DNA from: Pseudomonadota bacterium
GTDB taxonomy: Bacteria > Pseudomonadota > Gammaproteobacteria > Burkholderiales > JABEVD01
Reading direction: 5' to 3'
Assembly: GCA_021835845.1 (NCBI GenBank)
Contig: JAKBJU010000011.1
Location: 3,528 to 67,527, forward strand
Length of the DNA: 64,000 nt
Positions 34,609-45,599 of the stretch are shown here, piece after piece. Position numbers and translations under genes: made by a program. Below the pieces are notes generated by a model. That model saw only the letters and a program-made list of their open reading frames with translations, was not told the origin of the DNA and did no database searches. The stretch's first letter is position 1. Each line of letters begins with the position of its first letter.

Positions 34609-35904
34609 TCAGGCAGCCTGTTGCTTGGCTTTGATTTTCGCGACTTCCTCGTCCCATCCGTCGGTCCTGACATAGGGATTCATTCTGGGACTCGCAACCA
34701 TGTTCGGATCGACATCGATGCCCATCGCATCCAGGAAATTCACCAAGCCGATGCGCTCGATCATTTCGCCGGTACGCTCATGCTCCAGCGCATTCTCGGC
34801 AAAGAAATCAATGATGCGCTGGCCGAGATCGACGAGCTGCTCCATGTCCTCGTCCGTTTCGAGCTTCATGAAGGGAACCACAACAGTGCCCATCAGATCG
34901 CCGATCTTCAGCGTACGCTTGCCCCCGACGAGAACCGTCGCTCCCTTGTCCTTGCCGGGAGAGAGCGCACCGGTCATGACATTGATGCAATGCATGCAGC
35001 GCACGCAGTCATGGTTGTCGATTTCCACGGCATGGGTGTCGCTGACGGCGACGCTGGAGACATGCTCGCCCTTCCTCACATCCTTGATTTCCTTCAACTG
35101 GAAAGCCTTGGTCGGGCAGCGCGCCACCACGTCGTTGACAAGCTCGTTCATGCCGTGCTTGGCGAACCACTTCTTCGCCAGCGCCTCATCCGTCCTGATG
35201 TTGTCGCGCCAAGTGCCGATGACGGCCATGTCGGCACGCTGAATCGAATTCATGCAGTCGTTGGGACAACCGGAAAACTTGAATTTGAACTTGTAGGGCA
35301 GCGAAGGACGATGAATATCGTCCACAAAGGTATTGAGCACCATGCGATGCGCCTTGGCTTCGTCGTAGCAGGATTGCTCGCAACGGGCAGCCCCCACGCA
35401 GGACATGGAAGTGCGCACGGCAGGCCCTGCACCGCCCAGATCGAAGCCGAGTTCGTTAATCTCGTCGAAAGCGCCCTGGACATTGTCGGTCGTCGCACCT
35501 TGGAACATGATGTCGCCGGACTGGCCATGGAAAGCGATCAGCCCCGAGCCGTGGCGCTCCCAGATGTCGGCCATCTTGCGCAGCACGTCCGTGTTGTAGT
35601 GCATTCCGGGCGGAGGCTGCACGCGCAGGGTATGGAATTCGGCAGCATCCTTGTAAATCGGCTCGCCTTTCTCATCCTTGAGTTCGGTAAAGCGCGGAAT
35701 GATGCCGCCGCCGTAGCCGAAAACCCCGACCGTGCCGCCCTTCCAGTAGCCTTTCTTGGTTTGGTACGAAGTTTCGAGCTGGCCGAGCAAATCGACCGCC
35801 ATGTCATTATCCTGAGCCAGGCGCTTCAGACCCGTAACGAAGCTGGGCCACGGGCCTTTCTCGAGCTCGTCGAGATTCGGCGTGTCGTGCATTTTCTTAG
35901 CCAT
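34609..35904 (-). CDS. dsrA: Reverse dissimilatory sulfite reductase alpha subunit
   Basis: TP.LDELE.GPWPSFV, SCVGAARCE, FKFSGCPNDC, CVRCMHC; AGGAGG RBS before ATG 35904. Confidence 0.98.
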   Translation of the reverse strand: MAKKMHDTPNLDELEKGPWPSFVTGLKRLAQDNDMAVDLLGQLETSYQTKKGYWKGGTVGVFGYGGGIIPRFTELKDEKGEPIYKDAAEFHTLRVQPPPGMHYNTDVLRKMADIWERHGSGLIAFHGQSGDIMFQGATTDNVQGAFDEINELGFDLGGAGPAVRTSMSCVGAARCEQSCYDEAKAHRMVLNTFVDDIHRPSLPYKFKFKFSGCPNDCMNSIQRADMAVIGTWRDNIRTDEALAKKWFAKHGMNELVNDVVARCPTKAFQLKEIKDVRKGEHVSSVAVSDTHAVEIDNHDCVRCMHCINVMTGALSPGKDKGATVLVGGKRTLKIGDLMGTVVVPFMKLETDEDMEQLVDLGQRIIDFFAENALEHERTGEMIERIGLVNFLDAMGIDVDPNMVASPRMNPYVRTDGWDEEVAKIKAKQQAA

Positions 35905-36025
35905 GAATCCTCCTACACATGAAATTATGGAAAGGTCCTCTCGAACCGCCGGCGATCTTGGTCGCCTGTATTCTAGACGCTCCGCCACCTGTGATATATT
36001 AGACAAGCCTGATAGTGCTGTGTAA

Positions 36026-36068
36026 ACTACCCTTCAGGGTTATACCCTCACCCCCCCTACTGGCTATA
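36026..36068 (-). promoter_or_regulatory. Tandem 19-bp box pair in the divergent dsrA promoter region
   Basis: Minus strand TATAGCCAGTAGGGGGGGT and TATAACCCTGAAGGGTAGT, starts 24 bp apart. Confidence 0.6.
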
Positions 36069-36155
36069 GACGCTTGAGCCTTGCGTCACGCTCAATATGG
36101 CTTAATATTGATATAGCAGATTTCCTTATTTTTATCACTTTGGCCCTGGAAAACG

Positions 36156-36371
36156 ATGACGCAAATCAGCGAACTGGAAAAATTCAGGATACCACTTGGC
36201 GGCCAGGAGATCGAGCTGCAGCAGGTCGATTACGCCGAAGGCGGGATGAGCCTGCTGCGGCTGCGCATCCGGGAAGGGAAGCGCTTCACCATATTCGACA
36301 TTGACCCCGTGACCGCGAAACAATGGGCCAATGCGATGCAGATCTGGGCAAATTCCGTCGATGGCAAATGA
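36156..36371 (+). CDS. Small hypothetical protein (first gene of the divergent operon)
   Basis: 71 aa, LLRLRIREGKRFTIFDID motif; overlaps next gene. Confidence 0.75.
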   Translation: MTQISELEKFRIPLGGQEIELQQVDYAEGGMSLLRLRIREGKRFTIFDIDPVTAKQWANAMQIWANSVDGK

Positions 36372-36954
36372 AATGACCGACGTCCGCTTCGATCTCGAGG
36401 GCAGATTCGTTCCGGAGGGCTATGCCTTTCCCCTGTGGGGCGAGGTGACGAGAATCCTGCCGGAGCTGGAAGATTTCGAGCTTGCAGGAATACTGCCGCT
36501 GAAGGGTGCGGCAAGCGGGGAAGGCATGCTGCTGCCCAGACGCGCCAAGCTCGCACTGCGCATTCCCACGAGTTTCGTTCGGAACGCACTTGAATTGTCG
36601 GGAAAAACCCTCGACATCGAAGGCAATCCGCTGCATGTCGGAACCGGAAACCCGAGGGAAATCGAAGCCCATCCCACGCTGCGCTCGCAGTTCGTGGCAA
36701 GCGAAAAGATCGAGACGGATTTCCTCAAGGAAGTCGAGACGCAGCTGGAAAAGCTCGAAGTATCCTGCAAATGGATCTGCGGCAGGAGACAAACCCTGAA
36801 AAACGGGGAAACAGTCCTTTCAGGCTACAGCCTGGCGGTACACGATCTCAAGCCGCCCGCCTCGATCAGGCTGCAGCAGGCGGGGCTCGGCAATTACCGT
36901 CGTTTCGGCTGCGGCCTGTTCGTCCCCCACAAGACGATAGCAGGCCTGGATTGA
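36361..36954 (+). CDS. cas6: Solo Cas6-like RAMP protein (Cas6/Cmx6, type I-MYXAN-like)
   Basis: C-terminal Gly-rich loop GLGNYRRFGCGLFVP, R..L.LRIP, L.GKTLDI.G..L.VG, S..LQ..G; about 197 aa; alternative start 36373. Confidence 0.8.
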   Translation: MANEMTDVRFDLEGRFVPEGYAFPLWGEVTRILPELEDFELAGILPLKGAASGEGMLLPRRAKLALRIPTSFVRNALELSGKTLDIEGNPLHVGTGNPREIEAHPTLRSQFVASEKIETDFLKEVETQLEKLEVSCKWICGRRQTLKNGETVLSGYSLAVHDLKPPASIRLQQAGLGNYRRFGCGLFVPHKTIAGLD

Positions 36955-36990
36955 CCGGAAGACTTTTAATTTCGTTTGGAGACAAGAAAA

Positions 36991-37320
36991 ATGGCATATC
37001 ATATCAATGGAGTTGACGTCGAAACCGATGACGACGGCTATCTGCTGGAAGCCGACTATAGCAACGAGGCAGTCGAAGTGATCGCTGCGGCAGAAGGCAT
37101 CGCGCTGAACCCGGATCACTGGAAAATCATCGACTATATGCGCGACCAATACCGCGAGCACGGCCACACGCCCAATTTCAGGAACATGCTGAAAGAAGTT
37201 CAGGAATTCTGGCCCGAGGCGGACAGCAAGGCGCTATACGACCTCTTTCCCATGGGGCCCGCAAAGCAGGGGGCAAAAGTGGCCGGCCTGCCCCAGCCCT
37301 ATGGGAAAGGCGGATACTGA
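36991..37320 (+). CDS. DsrC/TusE-family paralog lacking cysteines
   Basis: ETDDDGYL, A..EGI.L..DHW.II.YMR, LYDLFP.GPAKQGAKVAGLP.P; no Cys; ends GKGGY. Confidence 0.88.
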   Translation: MAYHINGVDVETDDDGYLLEADYSNEAVEVIAAAEGIALNPDHWKIIDYMRDQYREHGHTPNFRNMLKEVQEFWPEADSKALYDLFPMGPAKQGAKVAGLPQPYGKGGY

Positions 37321-37331
37321 AGGGACTCGAA

Positions 37332-37811
37332 ATGGAAAAAATCAATGCCAATGTCGTGCTGAATGTGAAGGGAACGACCTGCCCCGGCCCCCTTCTGGGT
37401 GCCAAAAGAATGGTGGACGAACTCGATGCCGGGCAGATCCTGCTTCTGATCTCCGACTGTCCCGGCACGCAGGATGACCTCTTCGCCTGGACGAGGCAGA
37501 CCGACAACCAGGTTGTGCATACCGAAAAGCTGCCGGACGGGGGAACGGGATATTACATCAGAAAGGGCAAGGGCCACGAATACCATGCCAACGTGCTGCT
37601 CGACATCCGCGGCGTCCTTTGCCCTGGCCCCATAGTCGAAGCCAAGAAACTGCTCAACGGCATGCAGTCCGGAGAAATCCTGAAGCTCACCAGCAACTGT
37701 CCCGGAATCCGCTCCGACATCGAGGGCTGGGCAAAAACAACCGGAATGAGCATCCTCGAAGCAGCCGAAATCGCTCCCGGCGAATACGATTTCTACATCC
37801 GGAAGGGATGA
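37332..37811 (+). CDS. Tandem two-domain TusA-family sulfurtransferase
   Basis: Two repeats each with L(N/D)..G..CPGP...AK and a second (D/N)CPG motif, each ending YIRKG. Confidence 0.88.
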   Translation: MEKINANVVLNVKGTTCPGPLLGAKRMVDELDAGQILLLISDCPGTQDDLFAWTRQTDNQVVHTEKLPDGGTGYYIRKGKGHEYHANVLLDIRGVLCPGPIVEAKKLLNGMQSGEILKLTSNCPGIRSDIEGWAKTTGMSILEAAEIAPGEYDFYIRKG

Positions 37812-38407
37812 TGCGGGTCAAGAGCCGCTGGTTCAAGGGCGATCGGGAAAAGTCCCCGCAGGAGATCGCGGGTGCGGCAGCCTTCATCCTGTGGAAAATC
37901 GCCCAGAATGCGCTGAAGAGCATGAGGAGCGCAGATTTCGGCATCGAAGCCGGTCCGCAGTACTTCGATTATCTTCAGGAATTCCTGATTTTCCTGGTGC
38001 AGATCGCGGACCGAATCGCCTTCGAAAAAATGGACAGCGATTCCAGGGTGGCCTTCACCACGGAACTTGCGCTCAGGGTCGCCGAAAACTTTGCGGAAAA
38101 CAGGAGCGCCCTGCTGGGACAGTCTTTGGGGACAAGCAAGAGCGAATTCATCACTCGCTACAACGAACGCTCGAACGTCTATTCGGAATGCAGCTTTGGT
38201 GCGGACGGCCCCGATTTTGCCTTCATCCGCTATCTCGGGCACTCTATACTGGAATTCTGCGAGGACAGGGACAAGAGCTGGGTAGTCGACCAGATCATGG
38301 CCATCGAAGCTCCGGAGGCCATCTCGACGGTGCAAAGAGCGATGAAGGGGCTGCTCGACACCGAGTCTGCCGGTCAGAGGCTGGGGTCGGGGATCGGCCC
38401 GGACTGA
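37808..38407 (+). CDS. Hypothetical protein in dsr-associated operon
   Basis: 199 aa, overlaps upstream stop codon; MRVKSRW..., EFLIFLVQIADR, WVVDQIM.IEAP. Confidence 0.75.
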   Translation: MMRVKSRWFKGDREKSPQEIAGAAAFILWKIAQNALKSMRSADFGIEAGPQYFDYLQEFLIFLVQIADRIAFEKMDSDSRVAFTTELALRVAENFAENRSALLGQSLGTSKSEFITRYNERSNVYSECSFGADGPDFAFIRYLGHSILEFCEDRDKSWVVDQIMAIEAPEAISTVQRAMKGLLDTESAGQRLGSGIGPD

Positions 38408-38408
38408 A

Positions 38409-39230
38409 ATGGACCGGAATGCCTATCTCGCCTGGCGCGACAGGAAGTTCGCAGAATCGCCTCCTTCGGCGGACGATCTCGTCGTCGAAGTCAATCATCC
38501 CGATGCATTGACCCCGTCAGAGCTGGCGGCGATCAGAGAGCGCATCCGACGAGCCAACATGGCGATCTACGCGAGCTCCGCCACCGACACCGACATGAAG
38601 CGTCTGGGCCGCCAGTTTGGTCTGGAAAGTCTCGATGCCAACTGGCTGGCAGGAGAGGACGGCATTTCCGAGATCAAGGTGTCAGAATCCGGCAAGGGCT
38701 ACATTCCCTACACGAACAAGCCGATCAAATGGCATACCGACGGCTATTACAATCCGATTGATCGGAAAATCCGCGCGATGCTGCTGCATTGCGTCCAGGA
38801 TGCCGAAACCGGCGGGGAAAACCGGCTGATGGATCACGAAATCCTGTATTGCCTGCTCAGGGATGAAAATCCCGAATACATCCTTGCGCTCTCGGAGCCC
38901 GACGCAATGACGATCCCCGAAAGAATGGGAGAAGACGGCGTCGCGCGGCCTGAAGAGGCCGGGGCGGTTTTCTCCTTCGACCCCGACGGGCATCTGCACA
39001 TGCGCTACACTGCGAGAACCCGGTCGATCCAGTGGAAGCAGGACGAAGCGACCTTTGCCGCAGTCTCCGCGATCGAGGACATCCTCTCGTCCGCTTCGCC
39101 CTACATGCACGCAATCAGACTGCAGCCGGGCATGGGGATCATCTGCAACAACGTGCTGCACGATAGATCGGGGTTTACGGGAAACTCTCGCCTGCTCTAC
39201 CGCGCCCGCTATCACGACCGCATCAAATGA
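38409..39230 (+). CDS. TauD/TfdA-like Fe(II)/2-oxoglutarate dioxygenase
   Basis: IPYT...I.WHTDGYY (HxD), LLHCV..A..GG.N, NNVLHDR..F, RLLYR. Confidence 0.88.
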   Translation: MDRNAYLAWRDRKFAESPPSADDLVVEVNHPDALTPSELAAIRERIRRANMAIYASSATDTDMKRLGRQFGLESLDANWLAGEDGISEIKVSESGKGYIPYTNKPIKWHTDGYYNPIDRKIRAMLLHCVQDAETGGENRLMDHEILYCLLRDENPEYILALSEPDAMTIPERMGEDGVARPEEAGAVFSFDPDGHLHMRYTARTRSIQWKQDEATFAAVSAIEDILSSASPYMHAIRLQPGMGIICNNVLHDRSGFTGNSRLLYRARYHDRIK

Positions 39231-39263
39231 AAACCCCTCGCCTTGAAAAAGGCGAGGGGTTTT
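39230..39263. terminator. Bidirectional intrinsic terminator
   Basis: AAAACCCCTCGCC-N8-GGCGAGGGGTTTT between convergent operons. Confidence 0.9.
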
Positions 39264-39274
39264 GCCAGCCGAAC

Positions 39275-40522
39275 TTACCAGCCGTAGGAAATGCCGAGAG
39301 AATCCTCAGAGAGGGAATTGCTGACATTGCCTCCGCCATATGCTGGGGGAATGTCGTTGATGCCGGACACGGTATTGCTGAAGGCATGCATGTAGAACAC
39401 CGATATTTCAGACTTGTCCGCAAGCTTCCAGGTGGCGCCCAGGGTCACATTGTCGGTGACCACCCCGGGGGCGAGGATGTTGAAGAAGGTTTCGGATGTC
39501 GCATAGGGCTCCTTGTTGTGGGCCCATCCGGCCCGCAAGGTCAGCGTGGAACTCCAGTCGTGGCTGACACCGATCTTGTAAACCGTCATATTCTGCCAGC
39601 CGAATCCCGCACCGTTCGGAGCGCCGAGATTGAAGGGAACGCCGCCGAGGGGGTTGCTGATCGATGCCACATCGCCGTACATGATCCGCTGGATGTCGAA
39701 GGCGACAGTGGTTACAGGCGCAGCCTTCACCGCGACGCCCACGCCATAGGTGGCAGGAATATCGAACTCACCCAGATTGGCAAACAGGCCGCTGTATTTG
39801 CTGAACTTGGTCATCGTTGTCTTGGTCTGGTAGGTCGCACCCAAAGTCACATCGGGAGTCACCTGTCCTATCCAGCCGAAATGGAGTCCATATCCCGTAG
39901 ACGTATCGGTACCATTATTCGAGGTTGAATTCGCCCCAACCCCCGGCGCCGTTGCGGCGGAAAATCCCTGAATGCCCTGCGCGGAAAAGGTCTGGTAGGC
40001 AATATTCAGGGAAACGCCGACCGAATTGTGCTCGTCCACCTTTTTCGACCAGGTCGGCGCAATGAAAAGCTGCTTTAGGTTGACCCCGCCCTCACCCTGC
40101 CCGCCGTAAGCTGCAAAGGGATTGTTCATGTAGCCGGTATTCATGCCGCCGTTGCCGTAGATGGATACGCCGAGCGAATAATCCGGCGCCATCATGTGGT
40201 TATAGCCGAAATTCGGGATCAGGAAATTGCTGATATTATTGCCGTCGAAAGAGCCATTTGCCCCGCCTGCCCCGGTGATCTGCGAATTCCTGTCGGGATG
40301 GAACAGCTCAAGGCCGAAATCGATCCTGTTGCCGACCATCACCATCCCTGCAGGATTAGTTGCGGCAGCCAGAGAATCCTGCGGAAAGGCGATACCCACT
40401 CCGCCCATACCTTCGGACTTGATGCCATAGCCGTTCGAAAAATAGCCATTGGTGGCATAAGCTGCCGGCGCGATCAGACCGCCAGCAATCATCATCGAAA
40501 CCAGTATTTTACGCTTCTTCAT
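39275..40522 (-). CDS. FadL/OmpP1-family outer-membrane transporter
   Basis: Signal peptide, ATNGY, GMGG...A...D......NPAG, YGNGGMNT. Confidence 0.88.
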   Translation of the reverse strand: MKKRKILVSMMIAGGLIAPAAYATNGYFSNGYGIKSEGMGGVGIAFPQDSLAAATNPAGMVMVGNRIDFGLELFHPDRNSQITGAGGANGSFDGNNISNFLIPNFGYNHMMAPDYSLGVSIYGNGGMNTGYMNNPFAAYGGQGEGGVNLKQLFIAPTWSKKVDEHNSVGVSLNIAYQTFSAQGIQGFSAATAPGVGANSTSNNGTDTSTGYGLHFGWIGQVTPDVTLGATYQTKTTMTKFSKYSGLFANLGEFDIPATYGVGVAVKAAPVTTVAFDIQRIMYGDVASISNPLGGVPFNLGAPNGAGFGWQNMTVYKIGVSHDWSSTLTLRAGWAHNKEPYATSETFFNILAPGVVTDNVTLGATWKLADKSEISVFYMHAFSNTVSGINDIPPAYGGGNVSNSLSEDSLGISYGW

Positions 40523-40561
40523 GTTGCCCCTCTCTCTAGTTGTATTGGAATCAAGAAAACT

Positions 40562-41029
40562 TCAAACGAACAGACAGATATCGGTTTCCCCCGCGAATTC
40601 CATGAAGGTTGCCGCGCCGCCATATTCGATCCCGTCGATGAAATCGCTCTTTTCGAACTCGAACAGATCGACCGTCATCTGGCAGGCGACGAACTTGACG
40701 TCCGCTTCCTGGCACAGGCTGCGCAATTCCTCAAGGGAAGCGACCCCCTTCTTCTTCAGCTTGTCCTTCATCATCATGGTCGCCATGGATTCCATTCCGG
40801 GCAGCATCTGCACGAAAACCGGCATCGGAACCGGCATCGGCATCGCAGGATTGGCGAGCGGGCTGATCTTGACATCGGAAAGATCCTTCTTCAGAAGCTG
40901 CAGCCCGTAGAAAGTGAAAAACACCTGGACGTCGTAACCCAGCGCAGCCGCGGTGGAAGCCAGAATGAATGGCGGATAGGCCATGTCAAGGGTGCCCTTG
41001 GTCGCGATGATCGCCATTTTCTTTGTCAT
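40562..41029 (-). CDS. dsrE2: DsrE2-type sulfur carrier (DsrE/DsrF/DrsH-like)
   Basis: KGTLDMAYPPFILASTAAA, FFTFYGL, ACQMTVD; next to tusA. Confidence 0.88.
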   Translation of the reverse strand: MTKKMAIIATKGTLDMAYPPFILASTAAALGYDVQVFFTFYGLQLLKKDLSDVKISPLANPAMPMPVPMPVFVQMLPGMESMATMMMKDKLKKKGVASLEELRSLCQEADVKFVACQMTVDLFEFEKSDFIDGIEYGGAATFMEFAGETDICLFV

Positions 41030-41061
41030 GAAATTTCCCCTTTATCGAACCTGACCAACCA

Positions 41062-41289
41062 TCACTTCTTCTTCATGAAAAAGACGTATTCTCCGCCTTG
41101 CTCGCTCTGCTCGAGCAACTCATTGCCGGTCTGCTTAGCGAAAGCCTGCATGTCCTTGACGGAGCCGCAGTCGGTCGAAACGACCCTGAGCACCTGCCCG
41201 GAATCCATGTCGGCAAGGGATTTTTTGGTCTTCAGGATGGGGAGCGGGCAATTGAGGCCGCGCGCGTCGAGTTCTTTCTGAAAATCCAT
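41062..41289 (-). CDS. tusA: TusA sulfurtransferase
   Basis: LDARGLNCPLPILKTKK. Confidence 0.93.
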   Translation of the reverse strand: MDFQKELDARGLNCPLPILKTKKSLADMDSGQVLRVVSTDCGSVKDMQAFAKQTGNELLEQSEQGGEYVFFMKKK

Positions 41290-41387
41290 AGCTGTCTCCG
41301 TAAGTTAAATTTATAAATCCATGTTTCATAGGAATGAAATATGTTCCCAATATAATGCTATTAGGCGGAATTTGCCATTCCATCGTC

Positions 41388-41430
41388 TATAGCCGAAATG
41401 GGTAATACCCATATAGCCCGCATGGGGGGT
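41388..41430 (+). promoter_or_regulatory. Tandem 19-bp box pair upstream of tusA
   Basis: TATAGCCGAAATGGGTAAT (41388) and TATAGCCCGCATGGGGGGT (41412), 24 bp apart. Confidence 0.6.
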
Positions 41431-41435
41431 GCACT

Positions 41436-42233
41436 TCACAAGCGCACTGCCAGAACCGGCTTTTCCGCTCGCTCCACCACTTTCTGCGTTGTCCCGCCGG
41501 AGCGGACATTCCCCATGCCCACCACGATCAAATCGACATCTGCAGGCGTCGCAAGAATCTCGTCGCAGGGCCTGCCAATGCGCACCATTTCGTGAACCTC
41601 GGCACCCAGCGCTCGCGCCAAATCCGCATTGACCGAAACATTGCGCTGCGCTCCCTTCCTTGACGCCTCGCTTGAAGCGACGCCCAGGACATGAAGCGGC
41701 AAGCCGCATTCCACGGCAATCGCGGCTGCCACGCTGGCAACGCTTGCAGAACCTTCCGATTCATCGACTGCAGCCAATATCCCGCGCGACCACATGCCGC
41801 AGGCGCGCGGCACCATCAAGACGGAACAGGGCGCGGAATCGATGATTCTGCTCACCATTTCCCCGACCAGAAGTTTGGCCAGGAAACCGCGCCGGCCGCG
41901 GCGCCTGATGACGATGAGATCTGATTTGCAATTCAATGCTTCCTGAACGATTTCGTCAGCAGGCGCATCCCCTCTTCTTGCATGGATATCGACCGACACG
42001 CCCATTTTATTCGCACTCATGCGCAAGTCGTCGACCCTCGCGGCGATATCCTGCTCGGTTCGGTCGGCAAGCCTGTGGGCCGCCATTTCGAACTCGGGGT
42101 TGCTCAAGACGGGCACGACAACGGAGAGCGGAAGATTGCATCGCCTCGCCATTTCGAGCGCGACGCGCTCCGCACCAGAATCGAATTCGGTGCGCTCAGT
42201 GGCAAGCAGAATATTTCTGAAGGGATGGTCCAT
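41436..42233 (-). CDS. Universal stress protein (two USP domains)
   Basis: FRNILLAT, DLIVI..RG...L..LLVG, APCSVL.VP, ILAAVDES, DLIVVG...G.TT.KVV..A.KPVL. Confidence 0.9.
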   Translation of the reverse strand: MDHPFRNILLATERTEFDSGAERVALEMARRCNLPLSVVVPVLSNPEFEMAAHRLADRTEQDIAARVDDLRMSANKMGVSVDIHARRGDAPADEIVQEALNCKSDLIVIRRRGRRGFLAKLLVGEMVSRIIDSAPCSVLMVPRACGMWSRGILAAVDESEGSASVASVAAAIAVECGLPLHVLGVASSEASRKGAQRNVSVNADLARALGAEVHEMVRIGRPCDEILATPADVDLIVVGMGNVRSGGTTQKVVERAEKPVLAVRL

Positions 42234-42234
42234 A

Positions 42235-42654
42235 TCAATGTCTCCCCGAAAGCAGGCCGGATGCAGCCGAAACCAGGATGACGATTTCCAGCGCACACAG
42301 GACAAGATAGATCCAGTCTCGCCGCTTCGCATAGACCGGCATGACCGCCAGGATGCAGAATATGGAACAGCCGGAAAGGATCGCAATGCCGAGAAAGCTC
42401 GCAAGATCGCCGCTGCCCAGCATCCCGATCCAGGCCCATCCCTTCGGCATGCCGGTCACTTCCAGGTATTTGTCTGCAGGCAGGTTCCAGACCTGCGGCA
42501 GGCGCTCAAGCGGAATTCTGGCCGGCAGGATGCCGAACACATAGGCGACGAAAGTGCCGATGAGGGTCAGAAATCCCAGGAGCGTGCTCCAGTGCAGCCA
42601 GGCAGCGTAGCGCAGTTGCTCCTTCTCGTACTGCCCTGCGTCCTTCAGGCCCAT
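42235..42654 (-). CDS. DUF1634-like membrane protein
   Basis: EQLRYA..L, three hydrophobic segments, GW.W...L..GD; directly after TauE gene. Confidence 0.7.
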   Translation of the reverse strand: MGLKDAGQYEKEQLRYAAWLHWSTLLGFLTLIGTFVAYVFGILPARIPLERLPQVWNLPADKYLEVTGMPKGWAWIGMLGSGDLASFLGIAILSGCSIFCILAVMPVYAKRRDWIYLVLCALEIVILVSAASGLLSGRH

Positions 42655-43562
42655 ATTCCGAGTCCTTTCAGCAAGGCGCCGACGCCGGACACGAACAGCA
42701 TGGCGATCACCATCCTGCGAATCACCGAGGCATTGAGCACCGACAAAAGATGCGCCCCTATCCTCGCCCCGATCATCATGCCGATGACAGAAGGCACAGC
42801 GATGACGGGCAATATCGCGCCGTTGTCGAGATAATACCAAGTCGCCGAAGAACTGGCCGTAGTCAGGATAAGACTGGAAGTGCCTGCAGCCACCTTGAGC
42901 GGAACCCCCATCAGGAGATTGAGAACCGGCACATTGGCCCATCCCGCCCCGACGCCGAAAAGCCCGCCCAGAAATCCGATCACCAGAAACAGCACCATGC
43001 CAAGCGGCGTGCGGTGAACCTGCCAGTTCACGTCTTCTCCGGAAATTGCATCTCGGAATATGCCATGGATGCCGAGCATTCCGGAAAGCGGATCGGAAGC
43101 AGGCACATGGGGATATTCGGACTTCCTTGCGACAGCCATCAATACGACGATGCCGAGGATGGTAAGCCCCAGGGCGACCTGAACCACATTGGCAGGCAGG
43201 GCAAGGCCCAGCATGGCTCCCCCTATGGCGCTGACGGATGCGCCGAATGCAAGCGGCATCGCAAGACGGAGATTGGCAAGCCCCGCCTTCAACAGGGAAG
43301 GCCCCGCCGCAAGGGAGCTCGCAAGCGCAACGAGCAGTCCCGCGCCGCGCACGAAATCGAGGTGAAAAGGAAAAAAGCTGCCCACGATGGGCACGAAAAG
43401 CACCCCCCCGCCGACTCCGGCCGGAACTGCCACGATCCCGAGGAAGAAGCAGACGACAAAAAGCGCAAGCGGCCACACCCACCAGGCGCCAGCGCCGGCT
43501 GCAGCGCCGGCTGCAAATGCAGGATGCGAGAAAAAGAGCAGGGGCAGCGGCAGGCAGCGCAT
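42645..43562 (-). CDS. TauE/SafE-family sulfite exporter-like permease
   Basis: AGVGGGVLFVP, GLFGVGAGWANVP, P.KVAAGTS; start uncertain (43613 possible). Confidence 0.88.
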   Translation of the reverse strand: MRCLPLPLLFFSHPAFAAGAAAGAGAWWVWPLALFVVCFFLGIVAVPAGVGGGVLFVPIVGSFFPFHLDFVRGAGLLVALASSLAAGPSLLKAGLANLRLAMPLAFGASVSAIGGAMLGLALPANVVQVALGLTILGIVVLMAVARKSEYPHVPASDPLSGMLGIHGIFRDAISGEDVNWQVHRTPLGMVLFLVIGFLGGLFGVGAGWANVPVLNLLMGVPLKVAAGTSSLILTTASSSATWYYLDNGAILPVIAVPSVIGMMIGARIGAHLLSVLNASVIRRMVIAMLFVSGVGALLKGLGIWA

Positions 43563-43702
43563 CACGAATGCGTCTGTTCCGGCGCCATTACGGCAAAAGG
43601 TCGAAAAGGACATATGGTTCTGCAATCGGTTAATACGCTAATATATCGCATTGTACTCAATATCAGCATGCAATTAGGCGCAATCCAGGGGGGGGGGGCG
43701 TC

Positions 43703-43745
43703 TATAACCGCAATGGGGGGGCATGCATAACCCACACGAGGGAAT
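43703..43745 (+). promoter_or_regulatory. Tandem box pair between TauE operon and two-component system
   Basis: TATAACCGCAATGGGGGGG (43703) and weaker CATAACCCACACGAGGGAA (43726). Confidence 0.5.
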
Positions 43746-43797
43746 GACTTTGCCGCTACAGTGTTGCAAGACATGACAAATGATTTATAATCGAAAA

Positions 43798-44922
43798 ATG
43801 AGCGCAGCAGCGAAGGAATCCGTTCCGGAATCCACGCTCTCGGTCAACGACGAGTGTTCGACGCTGATCGAGGGGTTTCTTGGAACAATCGCAAAGATGA
43901 CGGGCGCAATGGCTGGCGCAGTGCGCATTCATTCCCCCGACGGGAAGGAACTGCGCCTGGTTGGCTCTTTCGGCTTGCCGCCCGATGTCGTCGAATGCGA
44001 AGACGCCGTCAATCGTAATTGCGGTGCCTGCGGCATGGCGGCAGGCGGTTCGGGAAATGCCGCATCCGGGGTCGAGGCATGCATGCTCCGCAATGGCCGC
44101 GGCTTCTTCGGAAAAACCTGCAAGCGCATGATCGCGGTTCCGCTCGAGGTCCGGGGAAGAACGACTGGCATCTTCAACCTGTTTTTTGCCTCGGCTCAGT
44201 CTATTCCTGCGGAAACCGAGAAAAACCTGCGATCCTTCGGCGAACTTCTCGGCACTGCCCTGGAAAACTCGATACGCTCCCGCGAAACCAGGAGAATGGG
44301 GCTGATGACGGAGCGGCGGCTGATGGCCAACGAAATACATGACTCCCTTGCCCAGACCCTGGTTTACGCGAGAATGCGCATGAGTCTTTTGAGTGAGGCA
44401 ATCAAATCCGGAAACGAATCCCTTACCGGAAAATATGTGAACGACGTCAATGAAGCACTGGCTTCCGGCCAGCATGCCGTGCGCGAACTCATCACCCACT
44501 TCCGCTGCCCGATGGATCCACTCGGGCTGCAGCACGCGTTGCGCGAACTCGTCGACGAATTCAGGGAGCGCACCGGCATCGCCCTCGAATACACCAATCG
44601 CATTGCCGATTTCATGCTTCCCATCGAATACGAACTCCAGGCATTCCATATCGTTCGGGAGGTTCTTGCCAATGTCGCCATGCATTCCCGGGCGAGCCGC
44701 GCGAGCCTTGCCGTGAGCCGCCATGACGGTTATTACCTGTTCGCCATCGAAGACAATGGCTCCGGCATTCCCGACATCGTCCCGGACGAAGGACACTATG
44801 GCCTGACCATCATGCGCGAACGCGCCATGCGCCTGGGCGGAAGAATCGAAGTGGAAAGTGCAAAAGGGCTTGGCACCAAGGTGACGCTGAGCTTTCCGAT
44901 CACCCAGGAGGTCATGCTGTGA
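43798..44922 (+). CDS. Cytoplasmic NarX/NarQ-like histidine kinase (Cys-rich GAF + HisKA_3)
   Basis: ERRLMANEIHDSLAQ, RELITHFR, E.LANV..HS.A, IEDNG.G, HYGL.IMRERA; no TM segment. Confidence 0.9.
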   Translation: MSAAAKESVPESTLSVNDECSTLIEGFLGTIAKMTGAMAGAVRIHSPDGKELRLVGSFGLPPDVVECEDAVNRNCGACGMAAGGSGNAASGVEACMLRNGRGFFGKTCKRMIAVPLEVRGRTTGIFNLFFASAQSIPAETEKNLRSFGELLGTALENSIRSRETRRMGLMTERRLMANEIHDSLAQTLVYARMRMSLLSEAIKSGNESLTGKYVNDVNEALASGQHAVRELITHFRCPMDPLGLQHALRELVDEFRERTGIALEYTNRIADFMLPIEYELQAFHIVREVLANVAMHSRASRASLAVSRHDGYYLFAIEDNGSGIPDIVPDEGHYGLTIMRERAMRLGGRIEVESAKGLGTKVTLSFPITQEVML

Positions 44923-45599
44923 ACAAACCCATCCGCATCGTTCTGGTCGACGATCATTGCCTGTGCCGACGCGGGCTCACCGAACTCTTCGACCACTGCT
45001 ACGGCATCTCAGTGGTCGGCGGTACCGGCAACGCAGCCGAAGTGATCCCCATTCTGGAAGCGCAGCGGCCCGACCTTCTGATCATGGATCTGCGCATGGA
45101 GCCTGTCGATGGCCTGACTCTGCTCGATCAGATCAGAAAGTCGGGTTGCGATACGCCGGTGGCGATCCTGACGATGAGCGACTCGGAATCCGATCTTGCC
45201 AAGGCGATGCGCCTCGGCGCGAAAGGCTACCTTCTGAAGGACATGGATCCCGAAGATGTCGTCAGCGCGGTGCGGCGCATCGCCAGCGGCGAACTCGTCG
45301 TCGCTCCGGCCATGACCATGAAACTGATGAATTTCCTGCAACATGGGCAACAGGATCATCACGTGCGCAAAAACTCTCTCGAACTTCTGACCGAGCGCGA
45401 GCGGGAAATCTTGCAGCATCTGGCGCGCGGAGAAAGCAACAAGGTCATTGCAAGGACGCTCGACATCAGCTACGACACCGTCAAGCAGCATGTCCGCCAT
45501 ATCCTGTTCAAGCTCAAGCTGGCATCCCGCGTGGAGGCAGCCGTCTTTGCCGTCGAGCAGAGGGCAAGCGAAGGCCGGGTTTCCTCGCCAAGCCACTAA
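44919..45599 (+). CDS. NarL/LuxR-family response regulator
   Basis: LVDDH, MDLRM...DG, GAKGYLLKD, LTEREREIL...G.SNK.IA..L.IS..TVK.HV. Confidence 0.95.
   Translation: MNKPIRIVLVDDHCLCRRGLTELFDHCYGISVVGGTGNAAEVIPILEAQRPDLLIMDLRMEPVDGLTLLDQIRKSGCDTPVAILTMSDSESDLAKAMRLGAKGYLLKDMDPEDVVSAVRRIASGELVVAPAMTMKLMNFLQHGQQDHHVRKNSLELLTEREREILQHLARGESNKVIARTLDISYDTVKQHVRHILFKLKLASRVEAAVFAVEQRASEGRVSSPSH

Follow-up and report, generated by a model that had tools for sequence, protein, structure and literature searches.

In a 64,000-nucleotide stretch of contig JAKBJU010000011.1 from a Burkholderiales bacterium (assembly GCA_021835845.1; the whole stretch is called the window), six palindromic boxes of 16 base pairs (bp) lie in three pairs before sulfur oxidation genes, dsrA among them. 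These paired palindromes are quite probably the operators of the NarL-family response regulator encoded beside them, which would activate the sulfur oxidation operons when phosphorylated by a soluble GAF kinase. Purple sulfur bacteria, chemolithotrophs, and many symbionts oxidise stored sulfur mainly by the reverse Dsr pathway, and we know of no dedicated transcription factor established for this pathway. In the proposed mechanism, one regulator dimer would occupy each palindrome and two dimers each promoter, and the phosphorylated regulator would activate dsrAB, the DUF6967-cas6 operon, tusA-dsrE2-fadL, tauE, and sat-aprBA.

Paired palindromes before sulfur oxidation genes

The original prediction had described six copies of a 19-bp direct box, in three pairs. 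All six were located in the sequence where it had put them, with pair spacings of 24, 24, and 23 bp, and the last copy (43726), which it had called weak, was the only one of the six not matching the core pattern. The boxes resembled one another as claimed, whereas the direct 19-bp form did not stand: both the alignment of relatives and the de novo motif gave a degenerate 16-bp palindrome as the unit. Its core is ACCC-N4-GGGT, in NarL-family geometry, and the pairs are 23-24 bp apart. The boxes (strand not applicable) are:

36027..36042, 16-bp palindromic box proximal to dsrA, the strongest single site of the genome in matrix scans
36051..36066, 16-bp box proximal to the DUF6967-cas6 promoter module, 24 bp from the 36027 box
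41390..41405, 16-bp box next to the tusA promoter module
41414..41429, 16-bp box, distal partner at the tusA promoter, 24-bp spacing
43705..43720, 16-bp box next to the tauE promoter module
43728..43743, 16-bp box, weak distal partner at the tauE promoter, 23-bp spacing; the version in relatives is stronger

Matches to the core pattern numbered 11 in the window against 2.2 +/- 1.6 in shuffled sequence; none of 100 shuffles reached 11, and five of the six boxes were among these matches. Between the two tusA boxes (41403-41420) we also noted two NarL-like heptamers set tail to tail as a short, perfect inverted repeat, which was retained in the two closest relatives only; the related-locus search had yielded just two close genomes. 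Profile search confirmed the identities of the window genes. The likely targets and the two-component pair are:

34609..35904, minus strand, dsrA, first gene of dsrABEFHCMKLJOPN (likely target)
36156..39230, plus strand, DUF6967, cas6-like, second dsrC, double tusA, unknown open reading frame (ORF), tauD-like (likely target operon)
39275..41289, minus strand, tusA, dsrE2, fadL-like outer-membrane channel (likely target operon)
41436..43625, minus strand, tauE sulfite exporter and usp (likely target operon)
43780..44922, plus strand, soluble NarX-related kinase: GAF with C81/C84/C101(/C114), HisKA_3 (H187), HATPase
44919..45599, plus strand, NarL-family response regulator: receiver D57, recognition helix YDTVKQHVRH

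The genome holding the window (G000; 2.2 Mb, 95.6% complete) was scanned with a matrix built from the six boxes. Only one further tandem pair was found (score 36, against 14.9 for the next), and it stands before sat-aprBA, in keeping with the enrichment that had been foreseen at apr genes. This pair, which took no part in training the matrix, lies on contig C21 about 50 bp upstream of sat, followed by an unnamed ORF of 278 amino acids (aprM-like by position), aprB, and aprA:

G000:C21:73703-73767 (L017:9704-9768), outside the window, sat pair with a weak third copy 22 bp further

When each region was left out of the training in turn, every held-out window pair was recovered among the top loci of the genome. 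An independent matrix was derived de novo from 65 dsrA-upstream regions with the family of this genome excluded (motif aTAaCCC.tatGGGTaG; log-likelihood 526, against 60-78 for shuffled sequence). The four best pairs that it found in the genome were restricted to sulfur promoters, namely those of dsrA (28.5), tusA (26.9), sat (24.9), and tauE/kinase (19.2), and the best unrelated pair scored 16.8.

Conservation with dsrA in two lineages

Among 401 genomes of the Burkholderiales, a kinase orthologue was found in 81, dsrA in 84, and both in 78. Two of the three kinase-only genomes hold dsrA pieces at contig ends and the third gave a borderline match with a long frame; a regulator search in four of the six dsrA-only genomes gave one close match near a contig end, two weaker matches, and one genome with none. 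The de novo motif and the site scans of orthologous dsrA promoters bore out the claim that the motif is conserved where the regulator is present. A site precedes dsrA in 61 of 64 Burkholderiales loci, and sites above 12 bits were found before 68 of 70 dsrA loci and in 0/70 upstream control stretches; 65 of these 70 loci were training loci, and the five held out scored at least 19.7. The two loci without a site are second dsrA copies lacking DUF6967-cas6 (L109 in G164 and L140 in G334), which may therefore be regulated differently. In 30 chosen genomes, 7 of the 23 scored sat promoters and 9 of 29 tusA-dsrE2 promoters had a pair above 15 bits, and none of the 30 recA promoters did; the recA promoters and the scans of the host genome both place the tandem pairs far above genome background, as had been expected. 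The core target is the dsrA divergent promoter, and the wider set seen in the window is a trait of some families only. A strict tandem direct-repeat pattern matched 13 of the 401 genomes, 12 of them kinase-positive (two matches for a reversed control). Being lineage-specific, this pattern misses most families, which the palindromic model recovers. A phylum-wide sample was uninformative (5/351).

In the other Gammaproteobacteria, dsrA was found in 78 of 251 genomes of the class, of which 40 were examined together with 10 of the 173 lacking dsrA. A related kinase was present in 37/40 of the former and 0/10 of the latter. In 23 of these genomes 12.7-17.2 kb separate the kinase from the dsrA start. 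The kinase often comes last in the dsr operon, and in one case it follows immediately past dsrR in the order dsrN-dsrR-kinase-regulator. An independent de novo search of 70 gamma dsrA promoters returned TATCCC-N4-GGGATA (538, against 53-87 for shuffled sequence), which precedes dsrA in 62/70 loci, with a second site 31-34 bp downstream of the first. Three gamma dsrA genomes gave no kinase match, and two of these still have the regulator; one of the two combines an intact regulator and a strong site with a GAF-less kinase, the other has a frameshifted regulator and a weak site, and the third genome, of 1.1 Mb, has no site (the regulator was not searched there). Two 1.8-Mb genomes, G940 (L405:8027-9578) and G775 (L407:3121-4607), carry a GAF-deleted kinase and have kept the regulator and the dsrA site. 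In G843 (L406:3273-4761) kinase and regulator are apparently frameshifted and the dsrA site is weak, from either decay or sequencing error.

G runs inflate the scores of some boxes, and the three window modules could share ancestry, so we considered whether the resemblance is accidental, among G-rich sequences, or comes from local duplication of a promoter that has no regulator. We give almost no credence to this, since the box is conserved across two large lineages while the flanking sequence diverges, the independent matrix ranked the sulfur pairs as its top four, a pair lies on another contig before sat, and none of the 30 recA promoters has one.

The regulator belongs to the NarL/FixJ family, with a PF00072 receiver (phospho-Asp D57) and a PF00196 LuxR/GerE helix-turn-helix. 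Its closest solved structure is Escherichia coli NarL (1a04, E 4e-47), and its score against the NarL family of NCBIfam (PRK10651), 214 bits, falls below the cut-off of 250; gamma-type regulators score 227-231. We take V189 and K192 of NarL to be base-contacting positions, and in these regulators V189 is replaced by Q or L and K192 by R. The NarL half-site consensus is TACYYMT. Of the inverted NarL-family half-sites that had been invoked, the geometry held, since de novo searches gave 16-bp palindromes of the 7-2-7 form in both lineages, but the exact heptamer did not: all 12 half-sites are variants with 1-3 mismatches each. Binding of the boxes by this regulator, as originally predicted, is likely and well backed by sequence comparison.

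The regulators split into two types by their recognition helix, and the sites follow. With sites chosen by a combined matrix (4/99 control stretches passing), a TATC half-site was seen in 0/61 sites of genomes with the helix xDTVK[LQ]HVRH, in 3/3 Burkholderiales dsrA loci of gamma type (helix DGTVKLHVKA), and in 60/62 gamma sites. These counts come from kin and amount to two lineages, so they do not serve as a statistical test. More informative are two genomes, G285 and G183, that carry both kinase-regulator pairs; they have the TATC site at a gamma-type dsrA and beta-type sites at tusA-dsrE2, molybdoenzyme, or sat, near the beta-type pair. Inside the Burkholderiales, covariation of the Q/L helix residue with site sequence was looked for by eye and dropped, there being no clean pattern. 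The receiver (44919-45000) also has extra cysteines, C14, C16, and C27; C16 is kept in the box-rich families f1, f30, and some of f44/f49, not in f19, f26, and f42, and could be a second redox input.

Putative promoter modules and the probable direction of control

An ATATTG element had been proposed as the companion of each pair. Its distances from the pairs (37, 35, and 40 bp) were right; its role as a conserved partner was abandoned, for it is lost from the kinase-side promoter in relatives. The partner conserved across relatives is TAGACR-N17-GCYYAAT, whose TAGACR end adjoins the proximal box without a gap:

36067..36096, plus strand, TAGACG-N17-GCTCAAT, putative -35/-10 module toward DUF6967-cas6-dsrC-tusA-tauD
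41360..41389, minus strand, TAGACG-N17-GCCTAAT module toward tusA-dsrE2-fadL
43673..43704, minus strand, TAGACG-N19-GCCTAAT module toward tauE-usp; spacer with a long G run, 17 bp in close relatives
35996..36026, minus strand, putative dsrA promoter: TTTACA abutting the box, TAATAT starting 25 bp past the box end

Of 356 flanks (duplicate loci counted), 58 have TAGAC right at the edge of the box; other offsets have 1-12. The full element has three copies in the host genome, exclusively at the three window pairs, where the modules face DUF6967-cas6, tusA, and tauE; the sat pair has no such module. On the dsrA side, -10-like TAnnnT hexamers are most frequent 23-25 bp past the proximal box in both lineages, so that this box would centre near -44. 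The spacing fits an operator near -44 that abuts the -35 hexamer of a putative class II sigma-70 promoter, with the reservations that GCYYAAT is atypical and that a competing match exists on the plus strand. E. coli NarL activates in class II fashion from a proximal site near -44 at yeaR and ogt, and the proximal dimer here would likewise touch the -35 hexamer. Activation is the probable direction of control on these promoter layouts. An alternative sigma factor for GCYYAAT was rejected: the genome has seven sigma-70-family genes, yet the element is confined to the three pairs, so no wider regulon backs it.

The pair between the tauE operon and the kinase lies where it had been predicted, and its orientation serves tauE, not the kinase. 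Autoregulation was discarded as its meaning: a box was found upstream in 14 of 40 kinase loci scanned (four of these 40 being full-length NarX), and where there is one the module faces the divergent gene. The kinase-side module of two close relatives, and of five further genomes, fronts a Phs/Psr-family molybdoenzyme, likely SoeA. Neither soxY nor a close soeA-like gene was found in the 95.6% complete host genome, and lacking the molybdoenzyme match its kinase-side module now runs straight into tauE. The G run of that module (43686-43699), which makes a 19-bp spacer where close relatives have 17, is either an assembly slip or a slipped-strand change, and in the latter case it would weaken the tauE promoter. 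In several genomes (L010, L054, L055, L007) the kinase-side module fronts a calcineurin-like metallophosphoesterase gene, an unexplained regulon member.

Two neighbouring genes deserve mention. Most of the Burkholderiales dsr loci examined have DUF6967 and a lone cas6-like gene (36156-36954) on the divergent side of dsrA; the ORFs scanned contained no further cas gene (CRISPR arrays were not searched), so a non-CRISPR role in the dsr system is possible. Both lineages have a tauD-like dioxygenase gene linked to their dsr clusters (38409-39230; gamma loci L293-L362), and in most gamma loci this gene takes the divergent position opposite dsrA.

Several observations weigh against operators that mediate activation by this regulator. 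Single sites are unspecific (207 above 9 bits in the host genome), and the extended regulon is patchy, many kinase-positive families having a site only at dsrA. A sigma-70 promoter is expected to carry an A at -11, which GCYYAAT lacks. On the plus strand, a sigma-70-like match, TAGACA-17-TAAACT (36000-36028; chance 0.6), overlaps the putative dsrA promoter and ends inside the dsrA-proximal box; it would place the box at a start site and would mean repression. Finally, the co-occurrence and covariation are among kin and largely mirror two co-inherited lineages, so any dsr-linked DNA-binding protein would partly show the same.

DsrC, DsrR, DUF6967, or the Cas6-like protein could on that last ground bind the boxes, with the two-component pair a mere fellow traveller. 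Co-occurrence of their genes with dsrA follows by definition, most Burkholderiales have DUF6967-cas6 next to the site, and Grimm et al. in 2010 reportedly found DsrC and DsrR binding the Allochromatium vinosum dsrA promoter region. We nevertheless consider this improbable. The 16-bp two-fold geometry and the position against the -35 hexamer suit a NarL-family dimer, and in gamma loci the neighbour of the site is mostly tauD instead of DUF6967. Moreover G285 and G183, with their gamma-type dsrA locus, retain beta-type boxes near the beta-type pair, and a search of some 60 kb of G285 and 28 kb of G183, short of the whole genomes, showed no DUF6967.

The same regulator might instead mainly repress, or activate one side of the dsrA/DUF6967 divergent promoter and repress the other. 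The plus-strand match ending within the dsrA-proximal box and the poor -10 made by GCYYAAT speak for this, as does the dual role of E. coli NarL, which both activates and represses according to the available part of a review (PMC8199190). It is about as unlikely as binding by another dsr-linked protein, given that TAGAC abutting the box and the -10-like hexamers peaking past the proximal box toward dsrA both fit activation, and that at tusA a single gene can be served, the one that the module faces.

The kinase, its signal, and related systems

Of the NarXL-like system originally proposed, the NarL-family regulator stood and the NarX-type kinase did not. The kinase shares its GAF-like, HisKA_3, and HATPase domains with NarX and NarQ, whereas neither the periplasmic nitrate-binding sensor that NarX and NarQ carry between two membrane helices, nor a membrane helix, nor HAMP was found in it. 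Gamma-type kinases have two helices about 30 residues apart and HAMP, and the 10 tested gave no match to sensor families. The periplasmic sensor is the defining feature of NarX/NarQ in the part of PMC8199190 that was available. In a quick tree, 65 kinase orthologues formed a clade separate from full-length NarX (Shimodaira-Hasegawa-like approximate likelihood ratio test, 99).

These results bear on whether the boxes are ordinary NarL/NarP sites read by a canonical, nitrate-responsive NarXL that links sulfur oxidation to denitrification. The 16-bp geometry is identical and sources label the proteins NarX and NarL; still, we regard this as very improbable. No canonical NarXL was found in the host genome (unless it lies in the missing 4%), the only other full-length relative being 28% identical, and NrdR was the sole further regulator in the window ORFs that were scanned. 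Half-sites 1-3 bases off the NarL heptamer, a regulator under the NarL cut-off, and a kinase clade apart from NarX without its periplasmic sensor domain also count against it.

The cysteine-bearing GAF is the only input domain of the soluble kinase, which leads us to guess at a cytoplasmic redox or reactive-sulfur signal, sensed through a Cys-bound cofactor or Cys persulfidation; we hold this best guess at about even chances, and the signal is the weakest step of the explanation. NreB/AirS-like proteins are redox-sensing kinases based on Fe-S (iron-sulfur) clusters or thiols. In 48 sequences (three canonical NarX included), C81/82 and C84 were present in 48/48, C101 in 47/48, and C114 in 28/48. 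The GAF fold was predicted with confidence (predicted local distance difference test, 88), and its best sequence and fold matches were the GAF-A domains of DosS/DosT, at 14-16% identity; the fold search with the GAF returned no Fe-S GAF. Whole-kinase fold and Atlas searches were set aside as identity clues, having returned generic kinases and generic GAF kinases only. Three points count against a signal entering by the GAF: its three cysteines occur in canonical NarX as well, in two gamma genomes a kinase without the GAF goes with a retained regulator and site, and the available part of a review finds no evidence of independent sensing by the NarX GAF (PMC8199190).

On balance we slightly favour a wider view, in which a NarXL-derived system without nitrate sensor would be a dedicated, widespread activator of reverse Dsr in Gammaproteobacteria including Burkholderiales, with two lineages whose helix and operator changed together and a cytoplasmic sulfur or redox signal received through the cysteine-bearing GAF. 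It may correspond to Alvin_1057/1058 of A. vinosum, which are annotated narX/narL in a genome without nitrate reduction genes (PMC3368242, in part). If so, the kinase-regulator pair would be a switch for the sulfur oxidation pathway, and hundreds to thousands of proteins labelled NarX or NarL would be sulfur rather than nitrate regulators (545 and 2776 labelled matches, not every one of which was checked for a link to dsr). With a regulator, a 16-bp operator, and a set of targets named, control of reverse Dsr becomes testable.

Full-text literature, whose coverage leaves out key Allochromatium dsr papers, gave no account of this kinase-regulator pair or palindrome as a dsr regulator; the sulfur regulators described there control sox, shdr, or sqr (PMC12936845, 10.1101/2025.02.17.638619, and PMC9918477, each in part). 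In the available text of PMC9918477, Bacillus licheniformis NreBC is likewise a two-component system giving sulfide-responsive activation of sulfur oxidation genes (sqr, pdo), and NreC binds better when phosphorylated; it differs in a PAS sensor proposed to use heme and in serving a Firmicutes detoxification cluster, not dsr. Sulfurimonas SulRS and Acidithiobacillus caldus TspSR, as cited in the accessible part of PMC12936845, also exert two-component control over lithotrophic sulfur genes, but they are of the OmpR family (SulR, direct repeats) or sigma-54 type, sense periplasmic thiosulfate, and control sox rather than dsr. The Hyphomicrobium sHdrR/SoxR regulators resemble the present system in joint control of sulfur import, relay (tusA, dsrE), and cytoplasmic oxidation, yet are one-component ArsR-type repressors of the sHdr pathway (10.1101/2025.02.17.638619, in part).

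Mycobacterium DosS/DosT-DosR offers the best GAF matches and a NarL-family regulator with tandem palindromes; its GAF holds heme, in contrast to the cysteine cluster here. Another close system is E. coli NarX-NarL/NarQ-NarP, which shares the HisKA_3 kinase with a NarX-type GAF, the nearest solved relative of the regulator, and inverted 7-2-7 sites, of which the proximal one would here lie near -44 as at yeaR and ogt. Unlike E. coli NarX, the window kinase has no periplasmic nitrate sensor, membrane helix, or HAMP; the recognition helix reads TVKQHVRH instead of TVKVHVKH, the half-site is of the WACCC type instead of TACYYMT, and the targets are sulfur oxidation operons. What is new here is a probable regulon of the NarL family in which the operator is distinct and the kinase has shed the nitrate sensor.

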